From the NCBI GenBank assembly GCA_964557125.1, contig CAZKYX010000002.1, positions 25,828 through 89,827 on the forward strand: a stretch of 64,000 nt of DNA. The letters run 5' to 3'. The position numbers were made by a program, and so were the translations under genes. This DNA comes from an uncultured Gammaproteobacteria bacterium (GTDB lineage Bacteria > Patescibacteriota > Microgenomatia > Levybacterales > GWA1-39-11). Position 1 is the stretch's first letter; every line of letters begins with the position of its first letter. The notes under the pieces are model-generated. The model had not been told where the DNA came from and searched no databases. It saw nothing but the letters and a program-made list of their open reading frames with translations. Shown piece by piece: positions 21,001-60,933 of the stretch.

Positions 21001-24000
21001 CATATTTATTGCACCTACACCATTTTTTATAACAGCAGCTTCAGTTGGCGATACTGGATCTGATATATCTATAAGAGTCAATGAATCGTCTTGGGTACTA
21101 GCTACATATGCATACTTTCCGGATACATAGACTTCATCGGGTGAATTTAGCTCTGTTGCTCCAATACCGTCAGTGATGGTTCCAATTTCCATTGGCGAAA
21201 CTGGATTTGATATATCTATGATAGAAAGTGAGTTTTCGCCAGTCACATACGCATAGTCATCTTCTACATATACAGAAATAGCACCATCCAGTTTAGTAGC
21301 TCCGACACCGTCTTTAATTGTACTAAGTATATTTGGAGAGGCTGGATTGGTTACATCTATTATACTTAAAGAATCATCTATTAAACTTGTTACGTATATA
21401 TATCCGTTGGCAAAGTATAATCCATATGCTGCGTCTAATTCGGATGAAGTCAAAGTTCCAACCTCAGTTGGTGATGATGGGTTGGTCACATCAAATATTG
21501 ATAAAGCATCTTCGTTATCACTTGTTACATACGCATAACCGTTGTTAACAAATACTTTTCTGGCTCCATAAAGTTTTGTTGCTCCAATACCATCTTTTAT
21601 GGTACCTACTTCCGTTGGTGACGTCGGATCGGAGACATCAAATATAGACAGAGCAGCATCTTCATAACTCACAACATATGCATACTTTCCGACAACGAAT
21701 ACACCTGTTGGTTGATCAAGTTCTGTGGCTCCGGCACCATCTGTTATTGTTCCAATTTCAGTAGGGGATGTAGGATCTGATATATCTATAATTGATAGAG
21801 AATCTTCGCCAGTCACATATGCATAGCTTCGAGATATATAAACATCTTGTATTCCAGATAGTTTTGTTGCTCCCGCTCCTTCGGTTATGGTACCAACTTG
21901 AGATAGGTGAGGTGTTATTAATAAACCGCCACCAGCTATTGTAAGCTTTTTTGTAGGATTGATTGTGCCAATTCCGATATTTCCTCCTGATCCATTTTGA
22001 GGCATGACAATGAGATTGCCACTGATAGACGCAATGGCTGGACCTGTACCGTTCATATTTAGCACTGCAAATTTGGCGCTGGTAGTTGACTGTGCGCCAA
22101 GCAGAAAGTCTTGTGTTATATTCCCAGGTACAATTGCGCCTAAATTAGTTGTAAATGGTGAGTCTGTCCCCCCAGCAGAGCATGATCCCCAAGTGGGAGT
22201 TGTCCCTCCCAAAAGACATTGCGTACCTGTCCCGGCCGCCGCTTGATATACCTGTCCTGAGGCATTAGCGTAGATAATTCCACCGCTTTGCCCAGTAAAG
22301 GAGGATACATTTAATATTGAGCTAACCGTAACGTTTTCAGCAGTAAGAGTGCCGGCATTATCAAGCGTGACAGATCCAAGTATTGAGCCATTGGTAGTTC
22401 TGCTGAGCGTTGTCGAGGTATTGCCACTTGAAAGGGTGAAATAATCAGTTGCATCAGCGGTATTTGTGACTCTTAATGTGCCATTAACATCAAGCGTTGA
22501 GAGTGGAGAGCTGGTATTAATTCCAACATAACCTCCCGCATTGCGAGGGAGAAGTGCTATGTTACCAGTGGTGCTTCCTCCAAGACTAAGTGTGTTGTTT
22601 CGGGTCGTTTGAAGAGAGCCATCCCCTCCAAGAACTAATGCTTGTCCACCAGCATTTTGTGCTGAAACTGATGCAGTGGGTACTGTAGAACCGTTAATGT
22701 TGAGCACTGCAAATTTGGCACTTGTTGTTGCCTGAGAACCGAGAAGAAAATCTACCGTGGAATTAACTGGGACGATTGTGCCGGAAAGTACTTGGAAAGG
22801 TGAATTTGGTCCACTGGCACCGCAGCCGGTACAACCGGATGTAACGTTAAGCGTTGCAAAGGTTCCATTCCCACTCGAATCGATTATGGTAGAGCCTCCA
22901 ACGAGAAGACCACCTGAAACCAAATTGAAAGAATCACCACTTGAAAGATCAATCCTGTTGGCAGCTCCTCTAAAAAGCTGTGCGTCACCACCTAGTACTA
23001 TCCCTCCCGTTGAGCCTGTAATGGGGAGCTGAAATTGTCCCGCTTGAGTAAGTCTTGAGAGCTCAGTTGATACATTTTGAAATATAAAGTCAGCGTTGCT
23101 GGCACCCATTGTTTGAAAGGTAAGAGAGGTAATACCGCTGGTTTTTTGATTTTGAACAAGATAGGGGTCAACAATATCAGCAGTTATTTTTCCGCCACCA
23201 TTAGCTCCAACTATCAAATTGCCATTATTATCAATTCGAAGAACCGTTCTTCCGGCTTGGCTTGCTACAATAATGTCACCAATGCCTGCATTATCAACAA
23301 GAAGAGAGGCAAATGAAGAGCGTGCAGAAATTGAGGCAGTTCCCGTCGTGCCCGTCAGTCCTCTTACATCAAGTGCCAACTTAGTAAAGGGGGATGAGGT
23401 ATTAATACCAATTCTTCCGTCATTGGCAATAAAGAGGCGAGAGATTAGTCCGGCATCCCCTTGACCTGTGGAAGCGGTTTGGAAATTAAGGCTTCCCCCA
23501 TTGAGAACATTAAATAGAGCAGAAGGGGCAGAGCCTGTTGGCACTTGAAGAGAAAGATTGCCGGAAAATGAGGCTGTAGGGGTTCCTCCTGTGTTAATTC
23601 CAGTAAAGGCAATTTTGGCTGTTGAGGTAGCAACACCTCCTATTAGCAAATCAAGTGTGTCATTGATAGGGGATAGTGCACCATTGGTAAGTCTGAAAAA
23701 GCTACTTCCACCGCTGCCGCTTCCCATTTGGGTCCAAGATGTACCGTTGCAGTAGTAGTAGGTATTTGCGGGCCCGTCATAATACATTCTTCCGGCAGTT
23801 GCAACAGCACAGGCTCCGGCATCTGATTGGATGGATGGACCAAGTGATAAAGTTGATGAAATAGAGGCTGTTCCAGCTACATCAAGGGTAAAGTTGGCTG
23901 TTCTTTTACCGATAGCTACATTTCCATTGGTATCAATTACAAATTTTGTTGTTCCGCCTTGGCTAGCAGTAAAGATATCTCCCCCCACACTTTGATTGTT

Positions 24001-25887
24001 AACGATAAATGCGGCTGTTGCTGATTCTGAGGCCAATACAGCAAATTTGTCATCAATTTCTACAGCTCCTTGGCTGATGTTGCCAGTCGTACCAAGATTT
24101 ATCAGCGGCTTTTCAAGATCAATTTTTCCCAGCCCATCAGGTATTAGGATAATATTTCCACCAGATGATGAATTAGTTGCCAAGACAAGCGGTTGTCCGG
24201 ACAGCTTAAATTGACCTCCTGATGCGGTAAAAGTAGGAGCAGCACTTCCGCCGATTGTAAGATTTCCTGATGCATCTAAGGCCAAAACAACATTGGTGGT
24301 TGCAGCGGTTCCAGTAATAGGCGGAAGGCCTTGTAAGAATTCTGAGTTGGTAGCATAGGCAACTGTTGCTATTCTTTGCCGAGGGGTTAGCTCAGGTGTT
24401 GAGGCTATAGTAACACCAAGCCATGTATTTATGTTGTCAGAGAATACCGTTGTTGGGATAACCGTACCATTTCCAAGAATTACTGAGAATATACCGTCTT
24501 GATCTGGTGTAACACTGGTGAGTACCTCCTGCCAGAGGAGTGCGGCTCCAGATGCGGAAGCATCATCGTAAATAGCAAAACGAATATTTGTCGAAGTTGT
24601 TATAGGATTGTCTAAGTTATCAGTAAGCCTTCCTTGAAATGACAAAACACGAGGTGGAGCAACAGGTGCAGCGAAAGATGGCAGTATGTCTTTGTTACCA
24701 ACAAGGTTTTGGTACAGTGCAATCCCCACCCCTGAGGCAAAGACTATCAATATTGCAAAATGAAGGTAGTGGGAAAATGTATAGGTATGATATTTTTTGT
24801 ACCAATCTGGTCTGGTATGACGCATATGATGCCATATTCTTTTGTGAAAAGGGGAGCCTTGAAGCTGAATTGCTTGAGGTGCATAAAACTCTTTTTTAAT
24901 ATTGCGTATTCCAAGTAGATCGTGAAGTTTTAACTTTCTTTGAAACTCTAAGACTTTTTTTGCGTTAAGGGTTTTTTGTGCAACGTTAAGAGGTAGCGTG
25001 TTAAGCGCCTTCTTGCCAGTTATCATAAGCGCTATTGCCTGCGCTGTTTTTTCTTCAAAAAGAAGATAGGGGAGAACAAGGGTTTTTTGAAGGAGTCTAA
25101 GGGGGGCAAATTTTGAATAAGAGATACTGACTGGTTCATTTACCGCTGCTGTTTTTGTTTTGATGTCAGATAGCGCTATGGTTGGCTCAACAGCTTCAAG
25201 TTTTGCTTCAACTGAGGACAGTATTATTTCTTGTGGAGAAATGAGATTTTGCTTGGTAGCAAATTCCAGATATCGTCTGAGAGAGGAGAGCTTGCGATTG
25301 ATGGTTCTTGGAGCAGCTCCTTGGATATCAAGAAGTCTTTTTTTGTAACCATCCAATACCTCTTGGTTAATATGATAAAAATTTGCCTGCTTTGTTAATG
25401 GATTTTCAAGAGTTGGTAGGACTGCGGTTTCAAACCATCTGGCAAAATTTTGTATGTCATTGATATAGTTCTTTATAGTTAGATGCGATGAGCCAAAGAC
25501 ATAGAGGTAGTCTTTAAAATCTTGGATATGCCAGAGATCGGGTTGTAGGTTGTAGGTTGTAGGTTGTAGCAAGAAGGGATTTGCTTCAATTACCTTTTCT
25601 TTCACAAGCATTGTGCTCAGTTTGCGAATGGAGGATATGTGTCGGTTGATTGAACGTAGCGATATGCCTTCTTGCACAACTCCGTATTTGATAGCCCCAC
25701 CTTGTGTCTGCTTGTAGAGCTGAATAGTATCCTCTGAAATGTCGGTTGGGCTAATTGTTCTTCCAGTTGTCCTTTCAAACCACTGAATAAAATGGCGAAT
25801 ATCAGAAAGATAATTTTTTAAGGTGATTGGTGATACCTTTTTCTTTTCTGAAAGTAGTTGTGATTTAAAGAATTCTAGTAGTTCCAT
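15076..25887 (-). CDS. Giant surface protein (3603 aa): two N-terminal integrase SAM-like domains, a TM, then repeat-rich ectodomain with LVIVD-type repeats
   Basis: N-terminal ITLKNYLSDIRHFIQWF and LTIKNYINDIQNFARWF...RTINRKLSSLRRYL. TM YLHFAILIVFASGVGIALY. Eight repeats of LSIIDISDPTSPTEIGT type. Recurrent SAKFAVLNINGS modules. Confidence 0.9.
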   Translation of the reverse strand: MELLEFFKSQLLSEKKKVSPITLKNYLSDIRHFIQWFERTTGRTISPTDISEDTIQLYKQTQGGAIKYGVVQEGISLRSINRHISSIRKLSTMLVKEKVIEANPFLLQPTTYNLQPDLWHIQDFKDYLYVFGSSHLTIKNYINDIQNFARWFETAVLPTLENPLTKQANFYHINQEVLDGYKKRLLDIQGAAPRTINRKLSSLRRYLEFATKQNLISPQEIILSSVEAKLEAVEPTIALSDIKTKTAAVNEPVSISYSKFAPLRLLQKTLVLPYLLFEEKTAQAIALMITGKKALNTLPLNVAQKTLNAKKVLEFQRKLKLHDLLGIRNIKKEFYAPQAIQLQGSPFHKRIWHHMRHTRPDWYKKYHTYTFSHYLHFAILIVFASGVGIALYQNLVGNKDILPSFAAPVAPPRVLSFQGRLTDNLDNPITTSTNIRFAIYDDASASGAALLWQEVLTSVTPDQDGIFSVILGNGTVIPTTVFSDNINTWLGVTIASTPELTPRQRIATVAYATNSEFLQGLPPITGTAATTNVVLALDASGNLTIGGSAAPTFTASGGQFKLSGQPLVLATNSSSGGNIILIPDGLGKIDLEKPLINLGTTGNISQGAVEIDDKFAVLASESATAAFIVNNQSVGGDIFTASQGGTTKFVIDTNGNVAIGKRTANFTLDVAGTASISSTLSLGPSIQSDAGACAVATAGRMYYDGPANTYYYCNGTSWTQMGSGSGGSSFFRLTNGALSPINDTLDLLIGGVATSTAKIAFTGINTGGTPTASFSGNLSLQVPTGSAPSALFNVLNGGSLNFQTASTGQGDAGLISRLFIANDGRIGINTSSPFTKLALDVRGLTGTTGTASISARSSFASLLVDNAGIGDIIVASQAGRTVLRIDNNGNLIVGANGGGKITADIVDPYLVQNQKTSGITSLTFQTMGASNADFIFQNVSTELSRLTQAGQFQLPITGSTGGIVLGGDAQLFRGAANRIDLSSGDSFNLVSGGLLVGGSTIIDSSGNGTFATLNVTSGCTGCGASGPNSPFQVLSGTIVPVNSTVDFLLGSQATTSAKFAVLNINGSTVPTASVSAQNAGGQALVLGGDGSLQTTRNNTLSLGGSTTGNIALLPRNAGGYVGINTSSPLSTLDVNGTLRVTNTADATDYFTLSSGNTSTTLSRTTNGSILGSVTLDNAGTLTAENVTVSSILNVSSFTGQSGGIIYANASGQVYQAAAGTGTQCLLGGTTPTWGSCSAGGTDSPFTTNLGAIVPGNITQDFLLGAQSTTSAKFAVLNMNGTGPAIASISGNLIVMPQNGSGGNIGIGTINPTKKLTIAGGGLLITPHLSQVGTITEGAGATKLSGIQDVYISRSYAYVTGEDSLSIIDISDPTSPTEIGTITDGAGATELDQPTGVFVVGKYAYVVSYEDAALSIFDVSDPTSPTEVGTIKDGIGATKLYGARKVFVNNGYAYVTSDNEDALSIFDVTNPSSPTEVGTLTSSELDAAYGLYFANGYIYVTSLIDDSLSIIDVTNPASPNILSTIKDGVGATKLDGAISVYVEDDYAYVTGENSLSIIDISNPVSPMEIGTITDGIGATELNSPDEVYVSGKYAYVASTQDDSLTLIDISDPVSPTEAAVIKNGVGAINMNEVHQVFINKNFAYITSTDDTLSVIETSGVNAPSLATNVLSVSGDATLDNNLYISGSTFIDYYASSGAALSIQGANFKTGKILDLSGTFSPTTGGYTSAMDINITHSPTTTNDLFSSFNLTTNDSGTIANSDVLGINNRLNVTSNASNKDIIGIQNYIQNSSNLGDNLNGISSTLDITNSISTGERSATGIYSAVLANGGGDTNANIYLTGGYFHSAYSTDSDNTGATIDVIGLQAFVEGSLTTGGTIGLYGLMISEPNTSTTGNSTAFGIYLEPQTGADNNYGLCFDCDGSWDQNTVGSGIQFGTDANGVNLYRAANDTLRTDDNLSAGGFATISGNLTLEGVGRAVQSTDFNALTLGGTTTGDIILLPKDGIGTVSIPSTSTTGTVLSLAANSLTTGEAVDITTAITTNDTYGQLLDLNLTHTPTDDYGEFSGIDLSNNTSGSYEGTFFGIKNGLSLTGSSTNRNGYGIKNAVSTTSSSGTERLYGIYSSAVGAEDLSGSRNLTAIYGFASASSDGSGGTIVEKSIVGETSFWTTAATSTTVNMSALYALPDAPFILGGSPVVNSYGLNVQWEGFANTTGTTSQYSIYLDVPQGADNNYGICFDCDGTWDEINTTAAGIQFGTDANGVTLYRSASDTLKTDDAFNVAGNINLSSAGVASGLTGLTLASGPITLSASTGTGQCLIGGATASWGACGGGVAGSNWRLSSGALSPINDTLDLLVGSTSSSSAKFAVLNINGTATPVASVSATSGTDINKGIYLSGNGSIQSVRNNTLTIGGSTTGVTQLASQVIQFTGASQIIDTAVAGTLNFNTITNRPITTGTGLLTTGGNLSVNGSTTTLASTVINLTGNSPTIDLTHASTLSINTTTNRPITTGTGLTTLGGNLTVNGSTTSLASTTISLTGASPILNLTHASTLSINTTTNRPITTGTGLLTAGGDLTVAGATTTFSNAAAVLTTGTNLPLTITPNGSGDLILSSDFDTGVYVGASTNTPAALSVTGGIGSNAGFIINRVGLNNDIIAASSAGVTRFVVKNDGTASSAAGFAVDAAAGLQSTRNQTLVLGGSSTGDINIVPRNGSGVLNLQLSSTNGLRMNGTFGAAVTGGNTCISDVVNGIVTGTVACAGGGGGSSNWRITTNTGALSPINNTLDILIGAQATSSAKFSVLNINGSASPFASVSATLASGGSGNGISIGGDGTLQTVRNNTLVLGGTTTGDIWFKPANNLGSLFLTSNGKVNIGTLQSPTGSIFGGKLNVFSNDAGPVASFSGRTSYAALVVDQASGSGDLIAASRSGQNVFRVFNDGTVDVGPAATGKLNAGTVDPPYTIDGQGYATYMPSMVGVKEEYTGKVVLGYDNSVGGYAYKLDFNHFEYQSGHWVFNRIIDPDISNVSVLLSPNSQAKTWYKKDGANRTITLFADRPVEISYRLTAPRFDHDKWKTYTGVIKGHIAPPPTVNGSSANDNNIGADPYYNTLTINRESGQWVLKDVNNNNVNQMEAYGKVFVAQIKSGLVNTRELITDTFQASTASISTLTGNSFNFASGTISSLNSSMSNLGNATASSLNISTENISIAGISLKNYINQTVTQLLASGNFTSPVADSEQIRTNIISPTGNNGTIALNIESNNIKLKNTTTGKVVAQINDNGDASFSGTLSSEVALFESASISGSLATGSLTTNDATISGTLYANNIDGLDTRIANQLQNQQQASLSGNLASGNVDSLHVGNLTADYGIFEQGIVALGPATFTSLTAMEQISIGDSFVIGDNAINTLGADLEIQPLRQGGVNFLAGLVKIDTNGNMDIAGNLNVLGNIAAQNGVFNGILTANSIATNLISPLADNALVIARSPNSVIASGSAAISSDNLLDVRGSLSASGSGTFAKLNFNIVGQAHATSDLEATATGSAGFATLKKNKPELTIYNPNVTEDSLIYITPFGDTQNKVLYLLRQVPDSEFESGSFTVGVSGPVINKDIQFNYLIVN
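25541..25568. repeat. (GGTTGTA)4 heptamer array inside the giant CDS
   Basis: Encodes LQPTTYNLQP in the linker between the two SAM-like domains. The same array is intergenic at 40914 and, as its complement, at 42281. Confidence 0.85.
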
Positions 25888-28005: not shown

Positions 28006-28803
28006 CTATATCGAGGGTATAGCTATAAACATTATATTATTTTGGTATTGTCCAGCTGCTTGTGAGCTTGATACGTTGGCTTTGTACGTAATTTGTGTTT
28101 GTCTCCCACGCCCAACATTAGTGCTGGACATAACGGTTTGGGATAGCTCAGCAGATTCACTTGAGGCAAACTGCTTATAAAAGGTTGAGGTCGCAAAGGC
28201 AGCAGGGCAGTCAGTACCGACAATATCATCGCATCGGTAGCCAAAGCCATAGGTAAGTGCACTAGTCCAAGCTGAGGCTGTTGTATGCGTGCAGGTTCCT
28301 GAATCACAGGTTGTATCAGGGATATCAACTCCGGTTGAATTCATTCTAAGCGGATGATTTTCATTTGCTAGAATTTGATAGCCAGCAGCAGAGCCGTTAT
28401 TTACCGTAAGGGTATTTGTGCGTGTGACTGGAGTGCCTGGAGCGAGTACCCCAAAATCAATAAATAACGACGATATTGAGAAGGCAAAGGCTATTCTGGA
28501 GTTAACATACTGAAACCCAGCTCTGACCGTGTAATTGGCCCCAGTATAGAGGCCTGGGGCTATTTGTCCAACGGTAATGCCAAGGCCATATTGAGAATTG
28601 GCGGCTTTTCCTGCAGCGGTATTCAAGTTCCCAAAGTGAATAGTGTAGTTACTGTTAGACATGGTCTCGGCATCAATAGTCCGAGCCCAAAATATCAAAA
28701 AAAGGGCAATGTTAAGCATTAAGAAAGGCAAAGAATATCGAGGTTTGAATATCGAATATCGTATATTGTATATTGATTGTAGGATAGTGAATTTTGAGTT
28801 CAT
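28006..28803 (-). CDS. Secreted beta-rich protein, WxL-like C-terminus (true start possibly the ATG at 28719)
   Basis: Signal-like MLNIALFLIFWARTIDA. C-terminal AGQYQNNIMFIAIPSI. The first 28 codons are read from a heptamer word array. Confidence 0.55.
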   Translation of the reverse strand: MNSKFTILQSIYNIRYSIFKPRYSLPFLMLNIALFLIFWARTIDAETMSNSNYTIHFGNLNTAAGKAANSQYGLGITVGQIAPGLYTGANYTVRAGFQYVNSRIAFAFSISSLFIDFGVLAPGTPVTRTNTLTVNNGSAAGYQILANENHPLRMNSTGVDIPDTTCDSGTCTHTTASAWTSALTYGFGYRCDDIVGTDCPAAFATSTFYKQFASSESAELSQTVMSSTNVGRGRQTQITYKANVSSSQAAGQYQNNIMFIAIPSI

Positions 28804-29177
28804 ATGAAGGATTTGGTTTTTTTGATTATTCCTTGAAGAAGTTTGGACACAATGATTTGCTGCTGAATAATTTCTTCATAGTCCTTTGAGCTTATATAAG
28901 TTAAATCTCTACATATTAGAAGCTGATTCTGGATTTCATTAACTGACCCGAAGGCTAGATAATAAAAGTAAACCTTGTCCTTATATGTTTTTCTGCCGAA
29001 ACCCTCAGCTATATTATTCGTAATAGATGTAACTGCGCGTTTCATTTGATCCGTTAATGAGTATAATTCTTCTTTAGGTAAGCTTCTGGTTAGCCTATAA
29101 ATCATTAATACAAGCGTGTGTCCCTCCTGCCAGACATGTAGGTCAGTGAAGGAAGATATGCTTTTCTTTACTTCCAT
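28800..29177 (-). CDS. Four-helix-bundle protein (23S rRNA intervening-sequence / Avd-like family)
   Basis: FTDLHVWQEGHTLVLMIYRLT...QMKRAVTSITNNIAEGFGR is typical of this family. Confidence 0.8.
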   Translation of the reverse strand: MEVKKSISSFTDLHVWQEGHTLVLMIYRLTRSLPKEELYSLTDQMKRAVTSITNNIAEGFGRKTYKDKVYFYYLAFGSVNEIQNQLLICRDLTYISSKDYEEIIQQQIIVSKLLQGIIKKTKSFI

Positions 29178-29827: not shown

Positions 29828-29850
29828 ATTGATTTATGCTTCAAGTTTGA

Positions 29851-29950
29851 TTTTTTTGTACTTTCGTTCCGTCGAAAGTACCAAAGCCTCTCGCCAAAGA
29901 GCGTTTTGAACGCTCATTTCTTCCATCACTCACTGAAAATCGGACTCATA
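29851..29950. repeat. Element E copy 2
   Basis: gtactttcgttccgtcgaaagtac hairpin at 29858-29881, followed by caaagcctct and cactcactgaaaatcggact. Homologous to 2362-2470. Confidence 0.7.
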
Positions 29951-30056
29951 CTTCATAAAATCAGTATTCGCCTGTCCATTTTCCGAGCGTTCATTCAGTC
30001 AGAATTTCGAGTTCAAATTCGCAATTGGCGATATACAAGGAGGATACTTATTCTTA

Positions 30057-30141
30057 GTCATGCTGAACTTGTTTCAGCATCTATATATGATCTTGAAATG
30101 AAAAGTTTCAAGACTCGTCAGCAGGAAGATTCAGAATGGCA
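30057..30141. repeat. GTCAT-capped composite palindromic element
   Basis: gtcatgctgaacttgtttcagcatc...gatcttgaaatgaaaagtttcaagac..cgtcagcag..gaatggca is co-linear with the element at 40937-41004. Confidence 0.65.
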
Positions 30142-30178
30142 ATTTTGAGGTAAATATAAAGATTTTAGAGTGTGGTGC

Positions 30179-30206
30179 CCCACCGTTCTGTAATAAGAAC
30201 GGTGGG
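30179..30206 (-). terminator. CCCACCGTT hairpin H1
   Basis: cccaccgttct / agaacggtggg 11-bp stem, 17 nt after the stop of 30223-30441. There is no clear U-tract. Confidence 0.5.
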
Positions 30207-30222
30207 ACGGGTACGTAGGATT

Positions 30223-30441
30223 TCAGGTGGGGAGAATTTTTTCTTCCTCAAGCCATCTGTCGATGGCTTTGGTTGCGGGTTCAAGAACAGAATCAAGTTC
30301 TGCCCAAGCATCACTTACAGCTTGAGCAGTAACTCTTGTAATTGCGACTTGGATCATGTGTTCCGCTTCAGCTTCATCCAGCTTTATGTGCGCCCGGACC
30401 ATTGCCTCTTCTGTGACCTTAACGTAATCTGGTTTTTCCAT
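30223..30441 (-). CDS. Hypothetical small protein (72 aa)
   Basis: GGAGAGG RBS and operon packing. Confidence 0.55.
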   Translation of the reverse strand: MEKPDYVKVTEEAMVRAHIKLDEAEAEHMIQVAITRVTAQAVSDAWAELDSVLEPATKAIDRWLEEEKILPT

Positions 30442-30479
30442 GTAACCTCTCCTTAGTTAGTCGGGTTTTCCTTTTTGAG

Positions 30480-30938
30480 TTAGAGCTTGGATTTCAGGTT
30501 CAACTTTGAGAAACCTTCTTCGGACATGCAAACATGGAGGGCATATAGCCATAACCAAGAAGAGCCGTCTACATACAGCCTTGGAAATTCCAAAACATCT
30601 TGGTCGGGAGTATCCATAAACCGTACTTTTTCAAGCGGGACTCCGGGCATATGAATGAGGATTTTCTTCCTCAAACCCGGTTCAAAGGAATTGACTTGAG
30701 GTTGTGGTTCTTTCAAGAAAAGCAGAAAGGCATATCTGCCAAAATAAAAGCCGTCCAGATGCGGACGACGATGGGTGCTTTTGACTTTTACCCCTTTTTC
30801 AGCTAAATCGGATACGAACACCTTGATATTCTTTCGGGCGTCCTCCTCGGTTGTATCAGGGATATCTGCTGTTCCGGGACTTAGGATAAGTATCCCGGAC
30901 TGGTTACCTTTCTTCAGTACTAAAACGTCTTTAGACAT
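30480..30938 (-). CDS. Hypothetical protein (152 aa)
   Basis: GAGGAA RBS. No motif recognised. Confidence 0.6.
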   Translation of the reverse strand: MSKDVLVLKKGNQSGILILSPGTADIPDTTEEDARKNIKVFVSDLAEKGVKVKSTHRRPHLDGFYFGRYAFLLFLKEPQPQVNSFEPGLRKKILIHMPGVPLEKVRFMDTPDQDVLEFPRLYVDGSSWLWLYALHVCMSEEGFSKLNLKSKL

Positions 30939-30961
30939 TGTTTCCTCGTGTTCTTCTGAAC

Positions 30962-31183
30962 TTAAGCGGCTCTTGCAGCTGCTTTCTTTTGGCGGCGATT
31001 GCGTCGCCAGTCACCAAAGCTCATATAGGCAATAAAGCCTGAGCTGGTGAGTGCGCTTACAAAAGTGCTTCCGAGTCCAGGGCCAATAAATGGAATCGGC
31101 CAGAGAAGTGCTTGAACACCCACGGTTACAACTGCAACCTTAGTGCTGAATTGCAGAGCCCCTTCGCCAAGCTTTTCTTTCAT
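30962..31183 (-). CDS. Small membrane protein (73 aa)
   Basis: AAGGAG RBS. Two hydrophobic segments and a basic tail. Confidence 0.55.
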   Translation of the reverse strand: MKEKLGEGALQFSTKVAVVTVGVQALLWPIPFIGPGLGSTFVSALTSSGFIAYMSFGDWRRNRRQKKAAARAA

Positions 31184-31437: not shown

Positions 31438-31592
31438 CTTTTCTCCTTTTTCCTACGTATGTTAAAGAGCTTCGCTTCTTTTGAAGCTATGCAAACCCTT
31501 CCGTAGCTTTTCAGCGTAGGAGGGTAAATGTACATCCAAGCTCAAAAGATACACAGCGAGTGCGTAGTTTCTAACTTAGATAGAATAGCGGA

Positions 31593-31696: not shown

Positions 31697-31724
31697 CCCC
31701 ACCGTTCTTATTACAGAACGGTGG
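31697..31724 (-). terminator. CCCACCGTT hairpin H2 (inverted copy of H1)
   Basis: cccaccgttct-tattac-agaacggtggg, 27 nt after the stop of 31751-32113. Confidence 0.5.
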
Positions 31725-31750
31725 GACAAATTGTTGAAATTACGTAGGTC

Positions 31751-33251: not shown

Positions 33252-33528
33252 TTTCTCCTGCCTTTCTTATGACCAGTGAAGGACTTCCTTGAACTTACGC
33301 ATACGCACAGGGTAGGGAGGAACTTCATGGTTTCCTTTCAGTTGTTTTGGTTCGGGTTTCCCCAAACCTTGACCTACGTTGCCCCGCACCACAAGGGTGC
33401 AGGACTATTTCAAAGAACCCTCTTTCGCTTAAGCTTCAGAAGGGCATGCTACCCAAAAGAGTTTAGCGATAGAGTTTTCTGCTCCCTCCATAACACAGCA
33501 AGTGCGTTAATTTAGGCACAGAATTAAT
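33252..33528 (-). promoter_or_regulatory. Long conserved 5' leader (copy B) of the kinase operon; candidate structured cis-regulatory RNA
   Basis: -10 TATAAT at 33535-33540 on the minus strand. 29-nt core GCCCTTCTGAAGCTTAAGCGAAAGAGGGT at 33417-33445. AGGTCAAGGTT plus a hairpin at 33349-33375. Confidence 0.5.
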
Positions 33529-33560
33529 AAGGCAATTATATCACGAAAGTGGGGTAAAAT

Positions 33561-33622
33561 CAAAAAACTATAAGACGTTAATAGCGTGAAGTTAGGACAG
33601 GGTACAGCGTACAGTTTTGAAC
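33561..33622. repeat. Cassette junction repeat, short form
   Basis: caaaaaactataagacgttaatagcgtgaagttaggacagggtacagcgtacagttttgaac. Confidence 0.7.
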
Positions 33623-33899: not shown

Positions 33900-34106
33900 C
33901 TGTATACTCCAATTGTCAATGTGATTGGCCTCAAAGATACTGCTTATATATCAGTGAGACAAACCCACGTGAATTATACAGAAAAAGAGTTGGAAATTCA
34001 ATACTATAAGATTAGGTTGCAGGTTACAGGTTACAGATTTCGGGTTTTAGGGAAATTTAAACAGCTAAATAACTAATAACTAATCACGAATAACAAATTT
34101 GTAGGT

Positions 34107-34716: not shown

Positions 34717-35036
34717 GCCTTCCTACTTGTACTTGTCAATAAAGACCAAGACGAGTTAAGGCGGGCTAACTAAAACCCAAATTACGCGTGCTTTTGTACG
34801 TAAGTAGAGCTTAGCAGATAAGGGATTATACCATATTAAGCCTATAGCATATAAGGTTATAGCTTACAGGTTACAGGATGCGGATGAGTTTGGTAAATAT
34901 ATTAATTTATTAGCTAAAACCTAAAACCCGAAACCTAAAACCTCATTCAAAAAATTACGTGATATGAATCTACGGGAGCTATTTGATAGAATAGGGATGG
35001 ATAATAAATAGCTAAATAGTTAATAGCTAATAGTTT

Positions 35037-38000
35037 ATGGAAGACAAAAACACAGAGAACAAATACAATCCACAAGAAATTGAGGCTAAATGGCAGGAGA
35101 AGTGGGAGTCTGATAAGACTTTTAGTATGGATATGGATAGGGCAGAAAACCCCTTTTATAACCTCATGATGTTCCCATACCCCTCAGCTGAAGGTCTTCA
35201 TGTAGGAAATATGTATGCTTTTACAGGGGCTGATGTGTATGCAAAATTCATGCGCATGCAAGGAAAGGATGTTCTTGAGCCTATTGGGCTTGATGGGTTT
35301 GGCATTCACTCTGAGAATTACGCCATAAAAATTGGTCGTCACCCAAAAGAACAGTCAAAAAGCGCAGAGAAGAACTTTTACCGCCAACTAAAATCTATTG
35401 GAAATTCTTTTGATTGGGATAGAACAGTTGAGACCTATAGCCCTGATTATTATAAATGGACCCAGTGGCTTTTTACTGAAATGTTCCGTAAAGGGCTTGC
35501 TTACCGTAAAACGGCCCTCGTCAACTGGTGTCCAAAAGATTTAACTGTATTGTCAGATGAGCAAGTTATTGATGGTGAATGCGAGAGGTGCAGTACAAAA
35601 GTTGAGAAGCGTGACCTTGAACAGTGGTTCTTTAGAATAACAAGCTATGCTGACAGGCTTTTAGATGGGCTTGAGAATATTGATTGGACTGAAAAGGTGA
35701 AGACAGCCCAGCGCAACTGGATAGGGAAAAGTGAGGGTGCGCAGATTGATTTTCCTGTTCTTGAGGATAGAAATTTTGTACTGTTGCATGGCTATACCGG
35801 CTCAGTTGAGGCTAATTTCTTTCCATGGCTCAAAGAGAAGCTCTCAAAAGTAAGTACTTCAGTTTGGGCTGAGAATTTGCCTCACACCAACGCACCTGAT
35901 GTAGAAAAACAAGCTCAATTTGTGCTTGATAATGCTCGTTTTGATGAGAATACAGTACTTTTAGGACATAGCTTGGGAGCTGCAGTTGCGCTTAAGGTAG
36001 TTGAGAAGCTGAAGAGCCCCATAAAAAAGCTGGTGCTTGCAGCTGGCTTCATGCAGCCCGGATTTACAGACCATGCACGGCCATTTGAGGCTAGCTTTCA
36101 TTGGGAATTTGATAGTGAAGCTATAAAGAAAAATGTGGAGGAAATAATTATCCTGCGAGCTTCAAATGACTACGCTATCCCAGCAGAACGAGCTGATTAC
36201 ATAAAATCCCAAATTGGAGGAACAATTATTGATTTTGAGGCTGAAGATGAGCATATATGTGGTGAAATTGAGCCCATTGTTCTTGACAGTCTTTGTGCAC
36301 GTCTTAAAGTCTTTACTACAAGACCAGATACCCTTTTTGGGGCTACTTTTATGGTAATAGCCCCAGAGCATCCGTTGGTTGAGGCAATGGTACATGGTAA
36401 ATGGTCAATGGCAAATACTGATGAGGTCAAAAAGTACGTAGAAGAAGTTGCCGGAAAGAGTGATATTGAGAGAACCCATGCGGCAAGCTCAGGGCAAGCA
36501 GGTTCAGCGGAGGAGAAAACAGGGGTTGATTCCGGTCTTTTTGTGCTCAATCCCGCGAATATGAAAAAAATTCCAATATGGGTGGCAGATTACGTCTTGG
36601 CTGGCTATGGGACGGGCGCCATAATGGCAGTTCCCGCTCATGACCAGAGAGACTTCGCGACTGCTAAGAAGTATGGTCTACCGATTGTCCCAGTAATTCA
36701 ACCAAAACAACCAAATGAATATAATCCAACTGAGGAGCCATATATAGGTAACGGGGAGATTATAGGCTCTGATGAGTGGAATGGTTTTCACGCGCCAAAA
36801 GATATGGGGAAAGTCATAAGTTGGCTTGAAGAAAAGGGAATTGGCCTCAAAAAGAGTAACTATCATCTTCGGGATTGGCTTATTTCAAGGCAGAGATACT
36901 GGGGGGCTCCAATTCCTATGATTTATTGTGAAGACTGTGCAAAGAGATACAAAGGTCAAGTAGAAAATATGCCCGGTTGGTATGCGGAAAAGCCTGAAAA
37001 TTTGCCCGTTCTGCTTCCGGACGTGCAAAATTGGAGACCTGAGGGGACAGGCAGCTCTCCATTAGCCTCACACCCCGAATTTTATGAGACTACTTGCCCT
37101 GAATGTAAGGGAAAAGCTCGACGAGAAACAGATGTGTCTGATACATTTTTAGATAGTTCGTGGTATTTTTTAAGATATCCATCAACTGATATAGAAAACA
37201 ATGCTTTTGATATAGAAAGGACAAGGAAGTGGCTACCGGTTAATATGTACATTGGCGGAGCTGAGCACAGTGTATTACACCTCTTGTATTCACGTTTTGT
37301 CACAATGGTATTGAAAGATTTGGGATTGGTAGAGTTTGACGAACCATTTACAAAGTTCTTTGCTCACGGGCTTATCATCAAAGATGGTGCAAAGATGAGT
37401 AAAAGCAAGGGAAATGTAGTTGTTCCAGACGAATATATAAGAAAATATGGGGCTGATAGCCTGAGAGCATACTTAATGTTTTTGGGAGCTTATTCTGATG
37501 GTGGAGATTTTCGAGATAGTGGAATAGATGGAATGCATAAATTCTTGAGAAAAGTATGGAAGTTACTTTCAAATGTCACTGCGAGCGATAGCACGGCAGT
37601 CTTTGAGGATGCAGACAAGCTTAAATTTATGCACAAAACCATCAAAAGAGTCACCAAAGACATTGGGGAATTTGGGTACAACACTGCTATTGCAGGTCTT
37701 ATGGAATGGTATAACTTCCTTATCAAACAGTTAACAATTGACAAGCAACAATTAACTAGGGAGGAGACGGAAGTATTTTTGAAGCTTTTGGCGCCTTTCG
37801 CGCCTCATATGACTGAAGAGCTGTGGCAACAAACTCAGATTACAGATTACAGACGACAGATTACAGAATCTCAGAAATCAGAGATCGGAAATCAGAAATC
37901 TATTCATTTGGAAAAGTGGCCTGAATTTGAGGAAAAATATCTCGTGTCATCAACTGCGCTTATTATCGTTCAGGTAAATGGTAAAAAGCGGGGAGAGTTG

Positions 38001-38138
38001 ACAGTTGACAGTTCACAGTTAACAGTTAACAAAGAGATTGAAGAGATGGGTAAGGAGATAGCAGCAAAATATCTTGAAGGTAATGAAGTCAAGAAAACAA
38101 TCTACGTAAAAGGAAAGATACTTAATTTTGTTATATAG
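35037..38138 (+). CDS. leuS: Leucyl-tRNA synthetase with an inserted alpha/beta-hydrolase-like domain and heptamer-encoded C-terminal inserts
   Basis: HVGN (HIGH-type), KMSKSKGN, TTRPDT editing motif, RDWLISRQRYWG. Total length 1033 aa against about 800-860 aa typical. Confidence 0.95.
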   Translation: MEDKNTENKYNPQEIEAKWQEKWESDKTFSMDMDRAENPFYNLMMFPYPSAEGLHVGNMYAFTGADVYAKFMRMQGKDVLEPIGLDGFGIHSENYAIKIGRHPKEQSKSAEKNFYRQLKSIGNSFDWDRTVETYSPDYYKWTQWLFTEMFRKGLAYRKTALVNWCPKDLTVLSDEQVIDGECERCSTKVEKRDLEQWFFRITSYADRLLDGLENIDWTEKVKTAQRNWIGKSEGAQIDFPVLEDRNFVLLHGYTGSVEANFFPWLKEKLSKVSTSVWAENLPHTNAPDVEKQAQFVLDNARFDENTVLLGHSLGAAVALKVVEKLKSPIKKLVLAAGFMQPGFTDHARPFEASFHWEFDSEAIKKNVEEIIILRASNDYAIPAERADYIKSQIGGTIIDFEAEDEHICGEIEPIVLDSLCARLKVFTTRPDTLFGATFMVIAPEHPLVEAMVHGKWSMANTDEVKKYVEEVAGKSDIERTHAASSGQAGSAEEKTGVDSGLFVLNPANMKKIPIWVADYVLAGYGTGAIMAVPAHDQRDFATAKKYGLPIVPVIQPKQPNEYNPTEEPYIGNGEIIGSDEWNGFHAPKDMGKVISWLEEKGIGLKKSNYHLRDWLISRQRYWGAPIPMIYCEDCAKRYKGQVENMPGWYAEKPENLPVLLPDVQNWRPEGTGSSPLASHPEFYETTCPECKGKARRETDVSDTFLDSSWYFLRYPSTDIENNAFDIERTRKWLPVNMYIGGAEHSVLHLLYSRFVTMVLKDLGLVEFDEPFTKFFAHGLIIKDGAKMSKSKGNVVVPDEYIRKYGADSLRAYLMFLGAYSDGGDFRDSGIDGMHKFLRKVWKLLSNVTASDSTAVFEDADKLKFMHKTIKRVTKDIGEFGYNTAIAGLMEWYNFLIKQLTIDKQQLTREETEVFLKLLAPFAPHMTEELWQQTQITDYRRQITESQKSEIGNQKSIHLEKWPEFEEKYLVSSTALIIVQVNGKKRGELTVDSSQLTVNKEIEEMGKEIAAKYLEGNEVKKTIYVKGKILNFVI

Positions 38139-40065: not shown

Positions 40066-40904
40066 AAAAGTATTTACTGCTACTTGCACTCTCACTATTT
40101 GTACTTGGAACGACGGCGATTTATCAGTATGCAAAGTATACTGATAAAAAGCTGCATATAACGTTTTGCAATGTGGGACAAGGCGATTCGATATTTATAC
40201 GCACACCACAAGGTGCAGACATTTTAATTGACGGTGGACCAGCTTCAAATGTGCTAGATTGCCTTGCAAATCACATGCCTTTTTGGGACAGGGATATAGA
40301 AATTATCTATCTTACGCATCCAGATGCTGACCATCTCACAGGGCTTATTGATGTGTTTGAAAAGTATAATGTCCTTTATTTTGGAACAAGTGATGCGCCA
40401 AAAGATACAGATGTATTTAAGCAGTTAAACCAGCATATTGCTATGGAAAGCATCAAGAAGAATTTTATTTACAGAGGCGACAGTGTGAAATTATCTGATG
40501 GAGTTGCCATCAAAACTCTGTGGCCGACCGTTGAGTATACGCATTCAGGAGAGGAGGATACAAATAACTATTCGTTGACTCAGGACCTTTCGTATGGTAG
40601 TTTTCATGTCCTTCTGACAGGTGACATACCGTTTCAAATTTTGAATTCTATAATGCCAACTCTTACTGACATTGATGTTTTCAAGCCACCTCATCATGGG
40701 TCAAAGACCGGAGTAGACGAATATACCTTTCAGCACATACTTCCAAAAGCAGCAGTTATATCTGTTGGAAAGAAGAATAGATATGGTCATCCCAACAATG
40801 GAGTGCTTGGAATTCTACAACAAAATAATATCCCATATTATAGAACCGATGAGATGGGAGATATCGAGTTTGTAACTGATGGAAAGACGTGGAAGATTAA
40901 ATAG
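40062..40904 (+). CDS. ComEC-type metallo-beta-lactamase domain protein, separate ORF
   Basis: ATGA overlap with the previous ORF. TM, then NVGQGDSIFIRTP..ILIDGG, HPDADH and PHHGS motifs. Confidence 0.8.
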   Translation: MKKYLLLLALSLFVLGTTAIYQYAKYTDKKLHITFCNVGQGDSIFIRTPQGADILIDGGPASNVLDCLANHMPFWDRDIEIIYLTHPDADHLTGLIDVFEKYNVLYFGTSDAPKDTDVFKQLNQHIAMESIKKNFIYRGDSVKLSDGVAIKTLWPTVEYTHSGEEDTNNYSLTQDLSYGSFHVLLTGDIPFQILNSIMPTLTDIDVFKPPHHGSKTGVDEYTFQHILPKAAVISVGKKNRYGHPNNGVLGILQQNNIPYYRTDEMGDIEFVTDGKTWKIK

Positions 40905-40913
40905 GTTGTAGGT

Positions 40914-40933
40914 TGTAGGTTGTAGGTTGTAGG
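40914..40933. repeat. (GGTTGTA)n heptamer array
   Basis: ggttgtaggttgtaggttgtagg lies directly after the stop codon. Confidence 0.85.
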
Positions 40934-40936
40934 ATT

Positions 40937-41004
40937 GTCATTCCGGACTTGGTCCGGAATCTAGATCCTGAAAATAAATTACAGGATTTCGTCAGCAGAA
41001 TGAC
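40937..41004. repeat. GTCAT-capped composite palindromic element
   Basis: gtcattccggacttggtccggaatc..gatcctgaaaataaattacaggat..cgtcagcagaatgac, with terminal inverted GTCATTC/GAATGAC. Confidence 0.75.
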
Positions 41005-42150: not shown

Positions 42151-42313
42151 ACCCAAACAAAAGCTCTTGTTTTTTTATTGTAAGAATGCTAGCCTGAGAG
42201 TAGGTGGTAGTGAGCCCTCCAAGAGGACTAGCTATTTCATAGCGGCGTAGTGGGTAGGTAGTAGATGGGGGAATTTTTCTACAACCTAAAACCTACAACC
42301 TACAACCTAATTT

Positions 42314-42685
42314 ATGAAAAAGGTATTGCTTGTTGATGATGAAAAAGAAACCTCCGTTGTTTTTGAAACAGCTCTGCGTCAAGCGGGCTATGAGGTAAGA
42401 GTCGCGGCAAATGGTCAGTCTGCTGTTGATATGGCAAAAGCAGAGCAGTACGACCTTATACTTCTTGATCAAATGATGCCTGATAAGTCTGGCAATGATG
42501 TCCTAAGAGAGCTCAAAGCAGACCCAGCAACCGCACAAATGCCAGTAGCCATGCTTACCAATTTTGGACATGAAGAAATGGTAAAAGAGGCACTAAATGC
42601 AGGTGCAATTGACTACATCCTCAAATATCGGGTAAGTCATAGTGATTTGATAACTAAGGTAAAAAGATTGTTAGGTGAAGCCTAA
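42314..42685 (+). CDS. Stand-alone response regulator receiver (CheY-like)
   Basis: VLLVDDE, LILLDQMMPDKSG and a conserved Lys region (DYILK). Confidence 0.9.
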   Translation: MKKVLLVDDEKETSVVFETALRQAGYEVRVAANGQSAVDMAKAEQYDLILLDQMMPDKSGNDVLRELKADPATAQMPVAMLTNFGHEEMVKEALNAGAIDYILKYRVSHSDLITKVKRLLGEA

Positions 42686-42785
42686 AATTAAATTTTTAAT
42701 TTTTAATTCTTAATTTTTAATGAATTGACTCATTAGAAAATTTGAATTTGATTTAAAATTTTAAATTTGAATTTAAAAATTATTA
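42685..42785. repeat. AT-rich ~95-bp intergenic element, copy 2
   Basis: Shares the 27-nt identical tail aaaattttaaatttgaatttaaaaatt with the 50000-50090 copy. Confidence 0.7.
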
Positions 42786-43694: not shown

Positions 43695-44008
43695 TCAATA
43701 AATAGTTAAATGGTTAGATAGTTAAATAGCTATAAGATAAAGACTATTAACCATGCATCCATATAACTATTCAGCTATTATCTCTTATCCTATAGCTTTT
43801 TTCAGATTCAAATATTTTAAGCCCATAGTTGCACACCCTCAGAAAGAAGGAGTATAATATCCCCATTCGTTTTGTCAGTCGGCCTGTACAAACGCAGTAC
43901 TTGTTTGGCTGTCAAAACTGTACATTAATAATTCGTAGGTCAGACTAGCGTACAGCCGGTAGCGGTTAGCGTTTAGTTAAGAATTCAAACAAATCAAAGG
44001 AGAAGACC

Positions 44009-45922: not shown

Positions 45923-45947
45923 CCACAACGACCTACGTAAATATTCT

Positions 45948-45981
45948 CCCGCCTTGCCCTTCATGCAGAAGGACAGGCGGG
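45948..45981 (+). terminator. GC-rich hairpin after 45922
   Basis: cccgcc..ccttc / gaagg..ggcggg. Confidence 0.45.
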
Positions 45982-46119
45982 GGACCACACATTCTGTTAT
46001 TCGTGATTGGTTATTAGTAACTTAGCTAGTTCTTATCTGCAACCTAAAACCTGCAACCTGCAACCTAATCTAATCTCATAGTTTTGATTTCCCCCTGAAA
46101 AGAGAGTATAATTCCCACA

Positions 46120-46395
46120 TAATATCTTTGGGAAAAATGCGCACTGCCTTAAAGGCATAGCCGTGCATTCAGGCCAAGGATCAAACCTTGCTCGTTAAAC
46201 TAACTAGGGCAGCTTGCCCTTCTGAAGCTTAAGCGAAAGAGGGTACATTGACCCACCTTCGCTAAAATAGCTTCGGGGGTCTGCATCGCTTCGCAAGAGG
46301 CGAAGCTCTTTGAAAATTCGCAGGTCAAGGTTCGAGTAACATCGAACCGCAGATGCTGAGTTAAATCGAAGCATCAAAAATATAAAGGAGCACAA
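46120..46395 (+). promoter_or_regulatory. Long conserved 5' leader (copy A); candidate structured cis-regulatory RNA
   Basis: -10 TATAAT at 46107-46112. The 29-nt core at 46215-46243 is identical to copy B. AGGTCAAGGTT plus hairpin ggttcga-gtaaca-tcgaacc at 46322-46348. Confidence 0.5.
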
Positions 46396-48016: not shown

Positions 48017-48074
48017 CCCTTCGACAAGCTCACTGCTTGCAAGCTCAGGGTCTACGACCTGCGAATTCACACTC

Positions 48075-48106
48075 GTCCCACCGTTTCGTAAAAGAAACGG
48101 TGGGAC
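48075..48106 (+). terminator. CCCACCGTT hairpin H3
   Basis: gtcccaccgtttc-gtaaaa-gaaacggtgggac forms a 13-bp stem. Confidence 0.5.
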
Positions 48107-48291
48107 ACCAACTTCTCGATTTCACTTCATTTCACTCGAAGAATATTGTTCGAGGTACTCTCGAGAACTAAACTATTCATAGTTCGTTACTCATAATTCA
48201 TCATTCTTGCTTCTTTATCCATTTTGCATAATACTTACATTAGGTTGTTTATTGTCTAATAACTAATAACTAACAACCAATCACTAAGGTT

Positions 48292-49989: not shown

Positions 49990-49999
49990 GGAGATAAAT

Positions 50000-50090
50000 C
50001 GAAATTTTTAATTTTTAATTTGAAATCAAATCTAAATGTTTTAATGTTTAAAAATTGATTAAAAATTTTAAATTTGAATTTAAAAATTGT
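50000..50090. repeat. AT-rich ~95-bp intergenic element, copy 3
   Basis: aaatttttaatttttaatttgaaatcaaatctaaatgtt...aaaattttaaatttgaatttaaaaatt. Confidence 0.7.
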
Positions 50091-52881: not shown

Positions 52882-52959
52882 ATCTATTTTCCTTCTTTCT
52901 CAGGATGAATTGTTAAGGTACTCCTCCTACGCTCAAAGAGCTTCGGAGGACGATGGGGT

Positions 52960-58132: not shown

Positions 58133-58177
58133 ATATTTAGTATTACGTATCAGTGGGTAAGTATCAAGAGCGGTATA

Positions 58178-58268
58178 AATTCAAATTTTTACTTTTTAAT
58201 TTTTGATCAAATCAAAATGTTGCAATTTAAAAAACATTAAAAATTCTAAATTTTAAATTAAAAATTAT
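58178..58268. repeat. AT-rich ~95-bp intergenic element, copy 4
   Basis: caaatttttactttttaatttttgatcaaatcaaaatgtt...ttttaaattaaaaatt. Confidence 0.6.
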
Positions 58269-58429
58269 GCAGATTTTATCTTATAGTATTTGATTTTCTT
58301 GCTAAAAAGTGTTATAATTATTCGTTTTGCTGATTGAAAAACTGCCTCACGCACTTGCTGTTTGGGGTTTGGTTTTCAGGTTAGCTAGCACATTTACAAG
58401 TAGATTGAACAAAGAAAGGGGTTTTTCCA

Positions 58430-60764: not shown

Positions 60765-60933
60765 AATGCACTTCTATTAACAATCTTACCTAATAATACT
60801 GGTTTTTAAACTTTGTAGCAAGGGATTGGTTTTGGCTTCAAATATGTCTTAGGACTTGCAAGCATACCGGTGCATTGATATATTGAGTATAAGACAATCT
60901 CAAATGATATAGTAAGTGTATATTGTGATATAT

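Follow-up and report, generated by a model that had tools for sequence, protein, structure and literature searches.

Short intergenic modules that recur in varied order are known from several bacteria, such as BOX in pneumococci, the repetitive extragenic palindromic (REP) sequences and bacterial interspersed mosaic elements (BIME) in enterobacteria, and the Correia elements, all of them species-specific and highly repeated. Phages carry 'morons', which are self-contained expression units without a long structured leader. Here we describe a small hairpin, HP, which occurs in the leaders of two operons, referred to as A and B, within a 64-kb stretch (the window) of contig CAZKYX010000002.1 from an uncultured bacterium (assembly GCA_964557125.1). 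The initial annotation of the window, made from its letters, had proposed the ~275-nt leaders as a candidate new cis-regulatory RNA. What we identified is a compact hairpin that crosses phyla, is absent from Rfam and stands in an unusual operon frame resembling that of ribosomal RNA (rRNA) operons, rather than a 275-nt riboswitch.

Operons A and B belong to a group of short operons of small genes without known relatives, here referred to as cassettes, which are interspersed among the housekeeping genes of the window (those for leucyl-tRNA synthetase, LeuRS, and ComEC). Like BOX, BIME and Correia elements, the modules of their leaders are short and intergenic, occur in varied order, can form stable hairpins in transcripts, vary in presence between strains and sometimes include promoters; unlike these elements, HP has an 18-nt core that crosses phyla and a low copy number. 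The cassettes resemble morons in having a promoter at one end, a conserved hairpin at the other and small, strain-variable orphan genes, but they lie amid housekeeping genes of a cellular genome and have a long structured leader in common.

Two described systems come closer. In the rRNA operon (rrn) layout, boxB, boxA and boxC follow one another, with boxC in the leader-trailer helix (rrnTAC; PMC10250234). The other is the Flavo-1 motif (RF01705; PMC2864571), whose base, ccG-A-Uu-GaA-Gc ... gC-GgA-aA-G-Cgg, is laid out as in HP: in each, the lower stem is followed by an irregularity of one base, two pairs, a purine loop of 3x3 (GAA/GRA) and then a G-C and a C-G pair, and both contain the strings UGAAGC and GCGRAAAG. 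Both are also orphan in function and have no fixed orientation to genes. However, in place of the UUAA tetraloop that closes HP, Flavo-1 goes on with another 3x3 loop and then a long U/A-rich stem, and it has been described from Bacteroidetes only, whereas HP was also found in two metagenome-assembled genomes (MAGs) of Patescibacteria, one of them annotated as Woesebacteria. The Flavo-1 model (threshold 42 bits) gave no match on the leaders of the window even at E<=10, and no intermediates between HP and Flavo-1 were found among the compared sequences. At one locus (L033, a record labelled Algicola sp.), a Flavo-1 copy (1162-1265, minus strand, 48.8 bits) ends exactly where HP starts. HP looks like a minimal relative of Flavo-1, though it is no member by the family model.

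Hairpin HP and its homologues in other genomes

The 29-mer GCCCTTCTGAAGCTTAAGCGAAAGAGGGT, which had been reported as the identical core of leaders A and B, occurs exactly twice in the window, at 33417-33445 on the minus strand and 46216-46244 on the plus strand, where none would be expected (100 shuffles). The coordinates first given for leader B were correct, whereas those for leader A (46215-46243) were one base off. Because the preceding T is common to both, the identical run is in fact 30 nt (33417-33446, minus; 46215-46244, plus), and this block is 100% identical within leaders that share only ~63% identity overall. Both copies are sense-oriented and lie ~100 nt past strong promoters. The predicted fold consists of a closing stem, a CU/AG segment, a symmetric 3x3 loop (GAA/GAA), GC/GC and a UUAA loop; in copy B the stem is predicted as GCCCU/AGGGU with one bulged U. 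The invariant part is the 18-mer CTGAAGCTTAAGYGAAAG.

A search with the exact 18-20-nt core detected 16 loci in metagenomes and 29 in species-representative genomes; the exact 18-mer is present at 39 distinct sites. The hosts include several Bacteroidales MAGs, Saprospiraceae, Chitinophagales, one Woesebacteria MAG, another Patescibacteria MAG, metagenomes and possibly Microcoleus. At least four contiguous flanking pairs were present at 18 of the 39 sites and at none when the partner was shifted by 3 nt (binomial P 1.6e-15). The flanks vary by lineage (GCCCU/AGGGU, GCCAU/AUGGC, CCAU/AUGG, UCCG/CGGA, CAAGAG/UUCUUG and UCGG/UCGA). In a set of 24 sequences, which were picked from the 39 sites for having a hairpin, 90% of the cells were paired, compared with 37-50% in slid registers; five pairs were altered on both sides, and none of 500 shuffles attained the observed score. 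The core therefore has further homologues, and its closing stem covaries across phyla.

Read on the GAA strand, there are 12 G-U pairs and 4 A-C mismatches, so this strand is the folding one. In copy A of 6 of 8 strain contigs GCGAAAG reads GTGAAAG, so that an inner G-C pair becomes G-U, and copy B is unchanged in 7 strain contigs. We take the 18-mer sites without flanking pairing to be chance matches, as we do the site at L044, which pairs yet merely encodes Leu-Lys-Leu-Lys-Arg-Lys. The conservation profile of the Microcoleus loci is uninformative since they are 99% identical to each other.

The window gave no Rfam match at the gathering thresholds (Rfam 15) and neither leader gave anything relevant at E<=10; apart from tRNAs and one Flavo-1 copy, nothing was recovered from the window, the two leaders or 30 related loci. 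Viral contigs gave no match to a 27-mer or to the 18-mer, nor did a phage collection to 20 kb of window sequence or genome contigs to a 22-mer, and the hairpin gave no more than chance-level partial matches in phage and plasmid collections. A literature search for the HP sequence found no report of it. Several known identities were rejected as well. A kink-turn has three bulged bases and then tandem sheared G-A pairs on the bulged strand; here, as judged from the fold, the internal loop is symmetric (3x3) and neither strand has that order. A hammerhead would need the core CUGANGA ... GAAA and three helices, but the sequence reads CUGAAGC, so that the conserved A9 is absent; there is also one helix system only and no Rfam match. 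By inspection, loop E, mimicry of a tRNA T-arm or anticodon arm, mimicry of 5S rRNA or of the 23S GTPase centre, an integron attC site and a sigma-54 promoter were likewise discarded.

In other genomes HP was identified in 5' untranslated regions, 32 nt before thyA, 22 nt before trmD and before a lipoprotein gene. An all-against-all BLASTP of the open reading frames (ORFs) flanking 22 HP loci showed only thyA in common, in two lineages and in opposite orientations. At two loci (L018 and L031), repeats of CCACGGAGTT / CACACGGAGT follow HP by 40-100 nt and may be a further common module.

Modular leaders and trailers of the cassette operons

The near-equal distance from the -10 element to the start codon that had been noted for leaders A and B proved to be exactly 284 nt in both, counted from the last -10 base to the start codon, which is TTG at 33251 in operon B and ATG at 46396 in operon A. 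The proteins encoded downstream are indeed non-homologous. Both leaders have the small hairpin, P0, upstream of the core (Table 1), and since its GCCC belongs to both P0 and the HP stem, the two folds are mutually exclusive. The segment AGGTCAAGGTT with a hairpin 3' of it was also confirmed in both. The alternative pairing of the core with ACCCACCTTCGC, described for leader A, appears in its minimum-energy fold, and the folding energy of this leader is far better than that of shuffled versions (z -5.9). The partial relatives that had been noted in the window were confirmed: there are 3 copies of GAAGCTCTTT against 0.23 expected and 3 exact matches of ACGCACTNGCTGT, with 4 matches against 0.14 expected in a one-mismatch control, and TCGYAGGTCA is found exactly at 43933 and 46318, with a one-mismatch copy at 33370-33379.

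Outside the core, the similarity of leaders A and B (~63% identity over 231 aligned positions, covering the promoter region and the 5' leader up to the core) is modular paralogy: the window has five or more promoter-leader units that hold common modules in differing combinations. Leader C (31598->31437, minus) has its promoter and the 5' module ACGCACUNGCUGU in common with B and an 80-nt module ending in GCGAAGCUCUUU in common with A, but no HP core; leaders E (~52965->52881, minus) and F (58349, plus) hold further common pieces. Two strain contigs (L001 and L002, near 2980) lack ~55 nt of leader A (46324-46378) and have TATAT (5 nt) instead. The missing segment comprises the GGTTCGA hairpin and the next one, so the 'covarying hairpin' that had been regarded as a conserved part of the leader is gone from these strains. 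As the modules are mosaic and this one can be missing, the ~275-nt leader is not one conserved RNA. Simple paralogy, which had been named as the reading that would overturn the proposal, applies in part: the similarity does take in the promoter and the heptad repeats upstream of it, whereas the core hairpin has homologues elsewhere with covarying closing stems. The original observation is confirmed and its interpretation is partly supported; what is conserved is a strand-specific ~30-nt hairpin and no 275-nt RNA, the remainder of the leader being mosaic and common with leaders C, E and F.

Four of the leaders contain a boxA-like element. The pattern GYTCTTTRA has 4 matches in the window (128 kb, both strands), all of them sense and all in leaders A, B, C and E. 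Compared with the published boxA consensus GYTCTTTAANA (PMC5725501), a gamma-proteobacterial one, the fit is 11/11 in C, 10/11 in A and B (G at position 8) and 8/11 in E. A hairpin, which in B is HP itself, stands 5' of the element in A, B and C, while in E the 9-mer lies inside a hairpin, and a CGYAGG(UC) box is present 3' of each boxA-like element. The 5' boxes are perfect complements of boxes in the trailers of the operons, over 12 nt in A, 9 in B, 9 in C and 8 in D. The paired boxes differ between operons, with CGCAGG/CCTGCG in A versus CGTAGG/CCTACG in B, C and D, and GGA/TCC in C versus GGTC/GACC in the others.

The 3' ends are conserved too. Operons A, B and C share a terminal hairpin, GUCCCACCGUU...AACGGUGGGAC, which covaries (UUCU/AGAA versus UUUC/GAAA); these 3' hairpins (GTCCCACCGTT..AACGGTGGGAC; 48075-48109, 31698-31728 and 30176-30206) show compensatory changes and no U-tract after them. 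In operon C, 1148 nt (29847-30995), with parts of the genes for 73, 152 and 72 aa and the operon end, are replaced in two strain contigs (L058 and L062, 3930-4388) by 458 nt, which carry the gene for another protein (119 aa) and another 3' hairpin. The strain with these other cassette genes retains the trailer box CCTACGTA before its different hairpin, with CCUACGUA still at the place of the trailer box. In strains with an altered leader box no compensatory change was found in the trailer, which is invariant.

The order after the promoter, namely a hairpin, a boxA-like GYUCUUURA and a box complementary to the far end of the transcript, is the same as in rRNA-operon leaders and, for its part, in phage lambda nut sites. 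These elements, their order and their complementarity are directly visible in the window. There are also differences: the complementary stretch is 25-40 bp in rRNA operons versus 8-12 bp here, boxA and the next box are 18-19 nt apart in rRNA operons versus 0-5 or 28 nt here, and the units here are protein-coding cassettes. In other genomes, moreover, HP occurs without boxA.

Tandem repeats with a period of 7 nt are found throughout the window, with 33 arrays of 2-5 copies versus ~1 in composition-matched shuffles. Their units are varied (GGTTGTA, CTACAAC, CTGCAAC, CTAAAAC, AATAGCT, AATTTTT and others). Most arrays stand immediately 5' of promoters or abut start codons without a Shine-Dalgarno sequence, for example those of the response regulator (42314) and LeuRS (35037). 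At Bacteroidales loci, HP is flanked by 7-8-mers which resemble these heptads.

Table 1. Coordinates of hairpins, promoters, boxes and repeats in the window
Feature	Position	Strand	Remarks
HP copy B	33417-33445	-	invariant 18-mer 33439->33422; 48.2 bits, covariance model R1
HP copy A	46215-46245	+	invariant 18-mer 46222-46239; 50.9 bits, covariance model R1
Promoter, leader B	33535-33563	-	TTGATT-17-TATAAT, TG before -10
Heptads 5' of leader B promoter	33596-33620		CTGTACG/CTGTACC
Promoter, leader A	46084-46112	+	TTGATT-17-TATAAT
Heptads 5' of leader A promoter	46037-46066		CTGCAAC
Upstream hairpin P0, leader B	33442-33454	-	GGGUA-GCA-UGCCC
Upstream hairpin P0, leader A	46207-46219	+	GGGCA-GCU-UGCCC
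Hairpin following AGGTCAAGGTT, leader B	33368-33349	-	GGTTTGGG/CCCGAACC, written GGUUUGGG-GAAA-CCCGAACC
Hairpin following AGGTCAAGGTT, leader A	46329-46348	+	GGTTCGA/TCGAACC
5'-proximal module M1	33495-33507	-	ACGCACUUGCUGU; also in leader C, 31565-31553, and leader F, 58349-58361 (+)
boxA-like element, leader B	33410-33418	-	GUUCUUUGA(AA); overlaps last two bases of HP 3' strand
boxA-like element, leader A	46305-46315	+	GCUCUUUGAAA; directly 3' of hairpin GCUUCGC-AAGAG-GCGAAGC (46288-46306)
boxA-like element, leader C	31462-31470	-	GCUCUUUAACA; full 11/11 consensus match; leader without HP
Variant hairpin, leader E	52917-52955	-	UCCUCC-GAA-GCUC-UUU-GAGC-GUA-GGAGGA; HP-like architecture, encloses boxA-like GCUCUUUGA; 13.7 bits, E 0.22
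Operon A 5' box	46315-46326	+	AAUUCGCAGGUC; boxC position; 12-nt complement of 48056-48067
Operon A trailer box	48056-48067	+	GACCUGCGAAUU; 7 nt before 3' hairpin 48075-48109; invariant in strains
Operon B 5' box	33371-33379	-	ACGUAGGUC; runs into hairpin 33368-33349
Operon B trailer box	31742-31750	-	GACCUACGU; before 3' hairpin 31728-31698
Operon C 5' box	31451-31459	-	UACGUAGGA
Operon C trailer box	30212-30220	-	UCCUACGUA; before 3' hairpin 30206-30176
Operon D 5' box	43934-43941	+	CGUAGGUC
Operon D complement box	45930-45937		GACCUACG; before hairpin ~45948-45982
Period-7 arrays, examples	25541-25569, 34014-34036, 34854-34877, 34914-34943, 35007-35033		
Period-7 arrays, further examples	40902-40938, 42279-42309, 46037-46066, 58069-58105		
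AT-rich intergenic repeats (AAATTTTAAATTTGAATTTAAAAATT family)	903-1044, 42678-42782, 49994-50089, 58175-58267, 60919-61057		

Proposed antitermination frame and rival explanations

The hairpin, boxA, boxC-like box and trailer complement standing in the rrn order led us to propose that expression of the cassettes may involve Nus-type antitermination and pairing of the transcript ends, HP being an RNA hairpin to which a factor would bind within an rrn-like frame. We favour this reading tentatively and hold it somewhat short of probable. Operons A-E would be built on paralogous modular frames, in which heptad repeats and a sigma-70 promoter close to consensus precede a long structured leader and to which operons A, B, C and D would add a conserved 3' end. 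HP would be one module of the frame, its 3x3 GA-rich loop and apical part being constrained and its closing stem free to covary, and, rather than sensing a ligand, it would be where a conserved trans-acting factor docks, whether a protein or the transcription complex. It would hold the position of boxB, abutting boxA in operon B; in A, C and E, boxA has another hairpin before or around it. NusB/NusE would bind boxA in the nascent leader, RNA polymerase would become resistant to Rho while transcribing the untranslated leader (~280 nt) and the several genes of the cassette, and the tethered 5' box would then pair with the emerging trailer in a boxC-like manner, so that the transcript would be closed or processed and its ends protected. 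From the sequence and arrangement of the elements we infer factor binding, antitermination and pairing of leader and trailer in the RNA.

A broader claim has two parts: that HP represents an uncatalogued cross-phylum hairpin class, which together with Flavo-1 would form a wider family of GA-loop hairpins bound by a conserved cellular factor, and that the frames of protein-coding cassettes here are like those of rRNA operons, with a hairpin, boxA and a strand that pairs with the trailer as boxC does, so that Nus antitermination and closure would act on mRNAs. That both parts hold together we consider doubtful.

Several observations weigh against the antitermination reading. The exact 18-mer occurs as a hairpin in only ~16 of 185,579 species genomes, usually in 1-3 copies each, a scattered distribution that suits a repeat element no less than a regulatory module. 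Between tandem genes, two HP copies were sense and three were antisense (three antisense to both neighbours), and in other genomes it was also found after gene ends. A boxA beside HP was detected at 1 of 22 loci in other genomes versus 0.37 by chance, so it is not enriched there. The leader-trailer complements are short (8-12 bp), the duplex energies with own versus foreign trailers were not operon-specific, D is not significant, and the alternative strain cassette keeps 8 of 9 leader-trailer pairs with no compensating change. The NusB, NusE and Rho genes are outside the 64-kb window.

It is rather unlikely that HP is instead a small repetitive or mobile palindrome related to Flavo-1, of the REP, BIME or miniature inverted-repeat transposable element (MITE) type, which persists at the level of DNA or single-stranded DNA and whose copies in the leaders are passengers of duplication with at most incidental effects on mRNA. 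Its sporadic cross-phylum spread and low copy number would fit, as would its mixed orientation to neighbours without any conserved neighbour gene, the leader modules, which are mosaic and indel-variable between strains, and one Bacteroidales MAG in which two copies lie in a ~180-nt repeated unit, 82% identical and bounded by inverted heptad arrays. HP abutting the Flavo-1 copy in L033 points in the same direction, and so do the Flavo-1 copies of Flavobacterium psychrophilum, which are reported to be sense, antisense or untranscribed (PMC9723704). Hairpins of single-stranded DNA, moreover, also form the G-T wobble. A selfish passenger, however, would be expected to diverge like the rest of the leader (63%), yet the block is identical at 30 of 30 positions and invariant or only conservatively altered across strains; there are two copies only in 64 kb, both sense, and the surroundings of the HP copies examined contained neither a transposase nor a RAYT-like gene. 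An invariant 18-nt loop across phyla with free stems is also unlike the known REP families, which to our knowledge are species-specific. Mobility of another kind, in which the 5' and 3' boxes do not pair as RNA but act as inverted repeats in the DNA at which cassettes are inverted or exchanged site-specifically, seems quite improbable. The boxes do bracket the coding part of four operons as inverted repeats of 8-12 bp, the cassette content varies between strains and a swapped segment ends near a 3' box. Yet no inverted cassette was found in the strain contigs of operon A (10 places, 17 contigs) or operon B (12 places, 27 contigs), the strain replacement begins within a gene (30995) away from any box, no recombinase gene is adjacent, and the box pairs vary between operons while their complementarity holds.

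The remaining two explanations were raised by the initial annotation. A ligand-sensing riboswitch or attenuator, in which the P0/HP pairings and those of HP with a downstream ACCC switch expression, could draw on the mutually exclusive pairings (GGGCA/UGCCC versus GCCCU/AGGGU versus AGGGU/ACCC(U)), on the z of -5.9 for folding of leader A and on the invariant internal loop as a possible ligand pocket. Neither leader has an intrinsic terminator on the sense strand, however, and HP lies ~150 nt from each Shine-Dalgarno sequence without complementarity to that region. HP is found beside unrelated genes here and elsewhere (thyA, trmD, lipoprotein, glycosyltransferases and orphans), which belong to no one pathway, and is partly antisense to them; the P0 hairpin and the ACCC partner were not seen with HP elsewhere, and the module adjoining HP is dispensable in some strains. 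Without a terminator, a consistent downstream gene or a conserved neighbour, a riboswitch or attenuator is therefore unsupported, and we regard it as improbable. A double-stranded DNA operator, at which a dimeric regulator bound to the GCTTAAGC palindrome would co-regulate both promoters, is highly improbable. The core does contain this 8-bp palindrome, the block as a whole forms an imperfect inverted repeat and both copies are equally far from their promoters, but ~100 bp downstream of the -10 element is far for an operator. In most strains copy A reads GCTTAAGT, where the natural C-to-T variant breaks the dyad of GCTTAAGC and keeps a G-U pair, and the non-palindromic GAA...GAA is invariant. 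The flanks covary for pairing and tolerate G-T but rarely A-C, which duplex DNA would not need; these flanks and the broken palindrome are at odds with such an operator.

Genomic setting and significance

The window is a segment of a cellular genome, which encodes LeuRS, ComEA/ComEC, a response regulator and a histidine kinase. Its gene content would suit an uncultivated bacterium with a small genome, and the organism is also present in the runs SRR109319xx and ERR84826xx. The LeuRS ORF (35037-38138, plus) has a serine-hydrolase/alpha-beta-hydrolase domain (PF06821) inserted at residues 248-401, directly before the editing domain, and three period-7 arrays (CAGATTA, TCAGAAA and AGTTAAC) lie within its 3' part at 37836-38031. 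A 3603-aa ORF at 15076-25887 (minus) has LVIVD repeats, with internal DNA repeats of 141-162 nt, and phage-integrase SAM-like N-terminal domains at its N-terminus. The cassette genes include one similar to T4 gp30.3, and a gene for a 23S rRNA intervening-sequence protein (PF05635, bAvd-like; 28800-29177, minus) adjoins the cassette region. A second family of intergenic repeats, AT-rich and comprising AAATTTTAAATTTGAATTTAAAAATT and relatives, lies at several promoter regions, in either orientation.

If HP is a factor-binding RNA module, it would be a new and very compact conserved element spanning distant phyla, including Patescibacteria, from which we know of almost no regulatory RNA. It would also offer a first way into the function of Flavo-1, an orphan motif. 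If HP is a repeat element instead, it would still be unusual, as a cross-phylum palindromic module within promoter-bearing repeats. If the leader-trailer layout is true, rRNA-style boxA tethering and end pairing would also serve ordinary operons, which would give the Nus factors a wider role.

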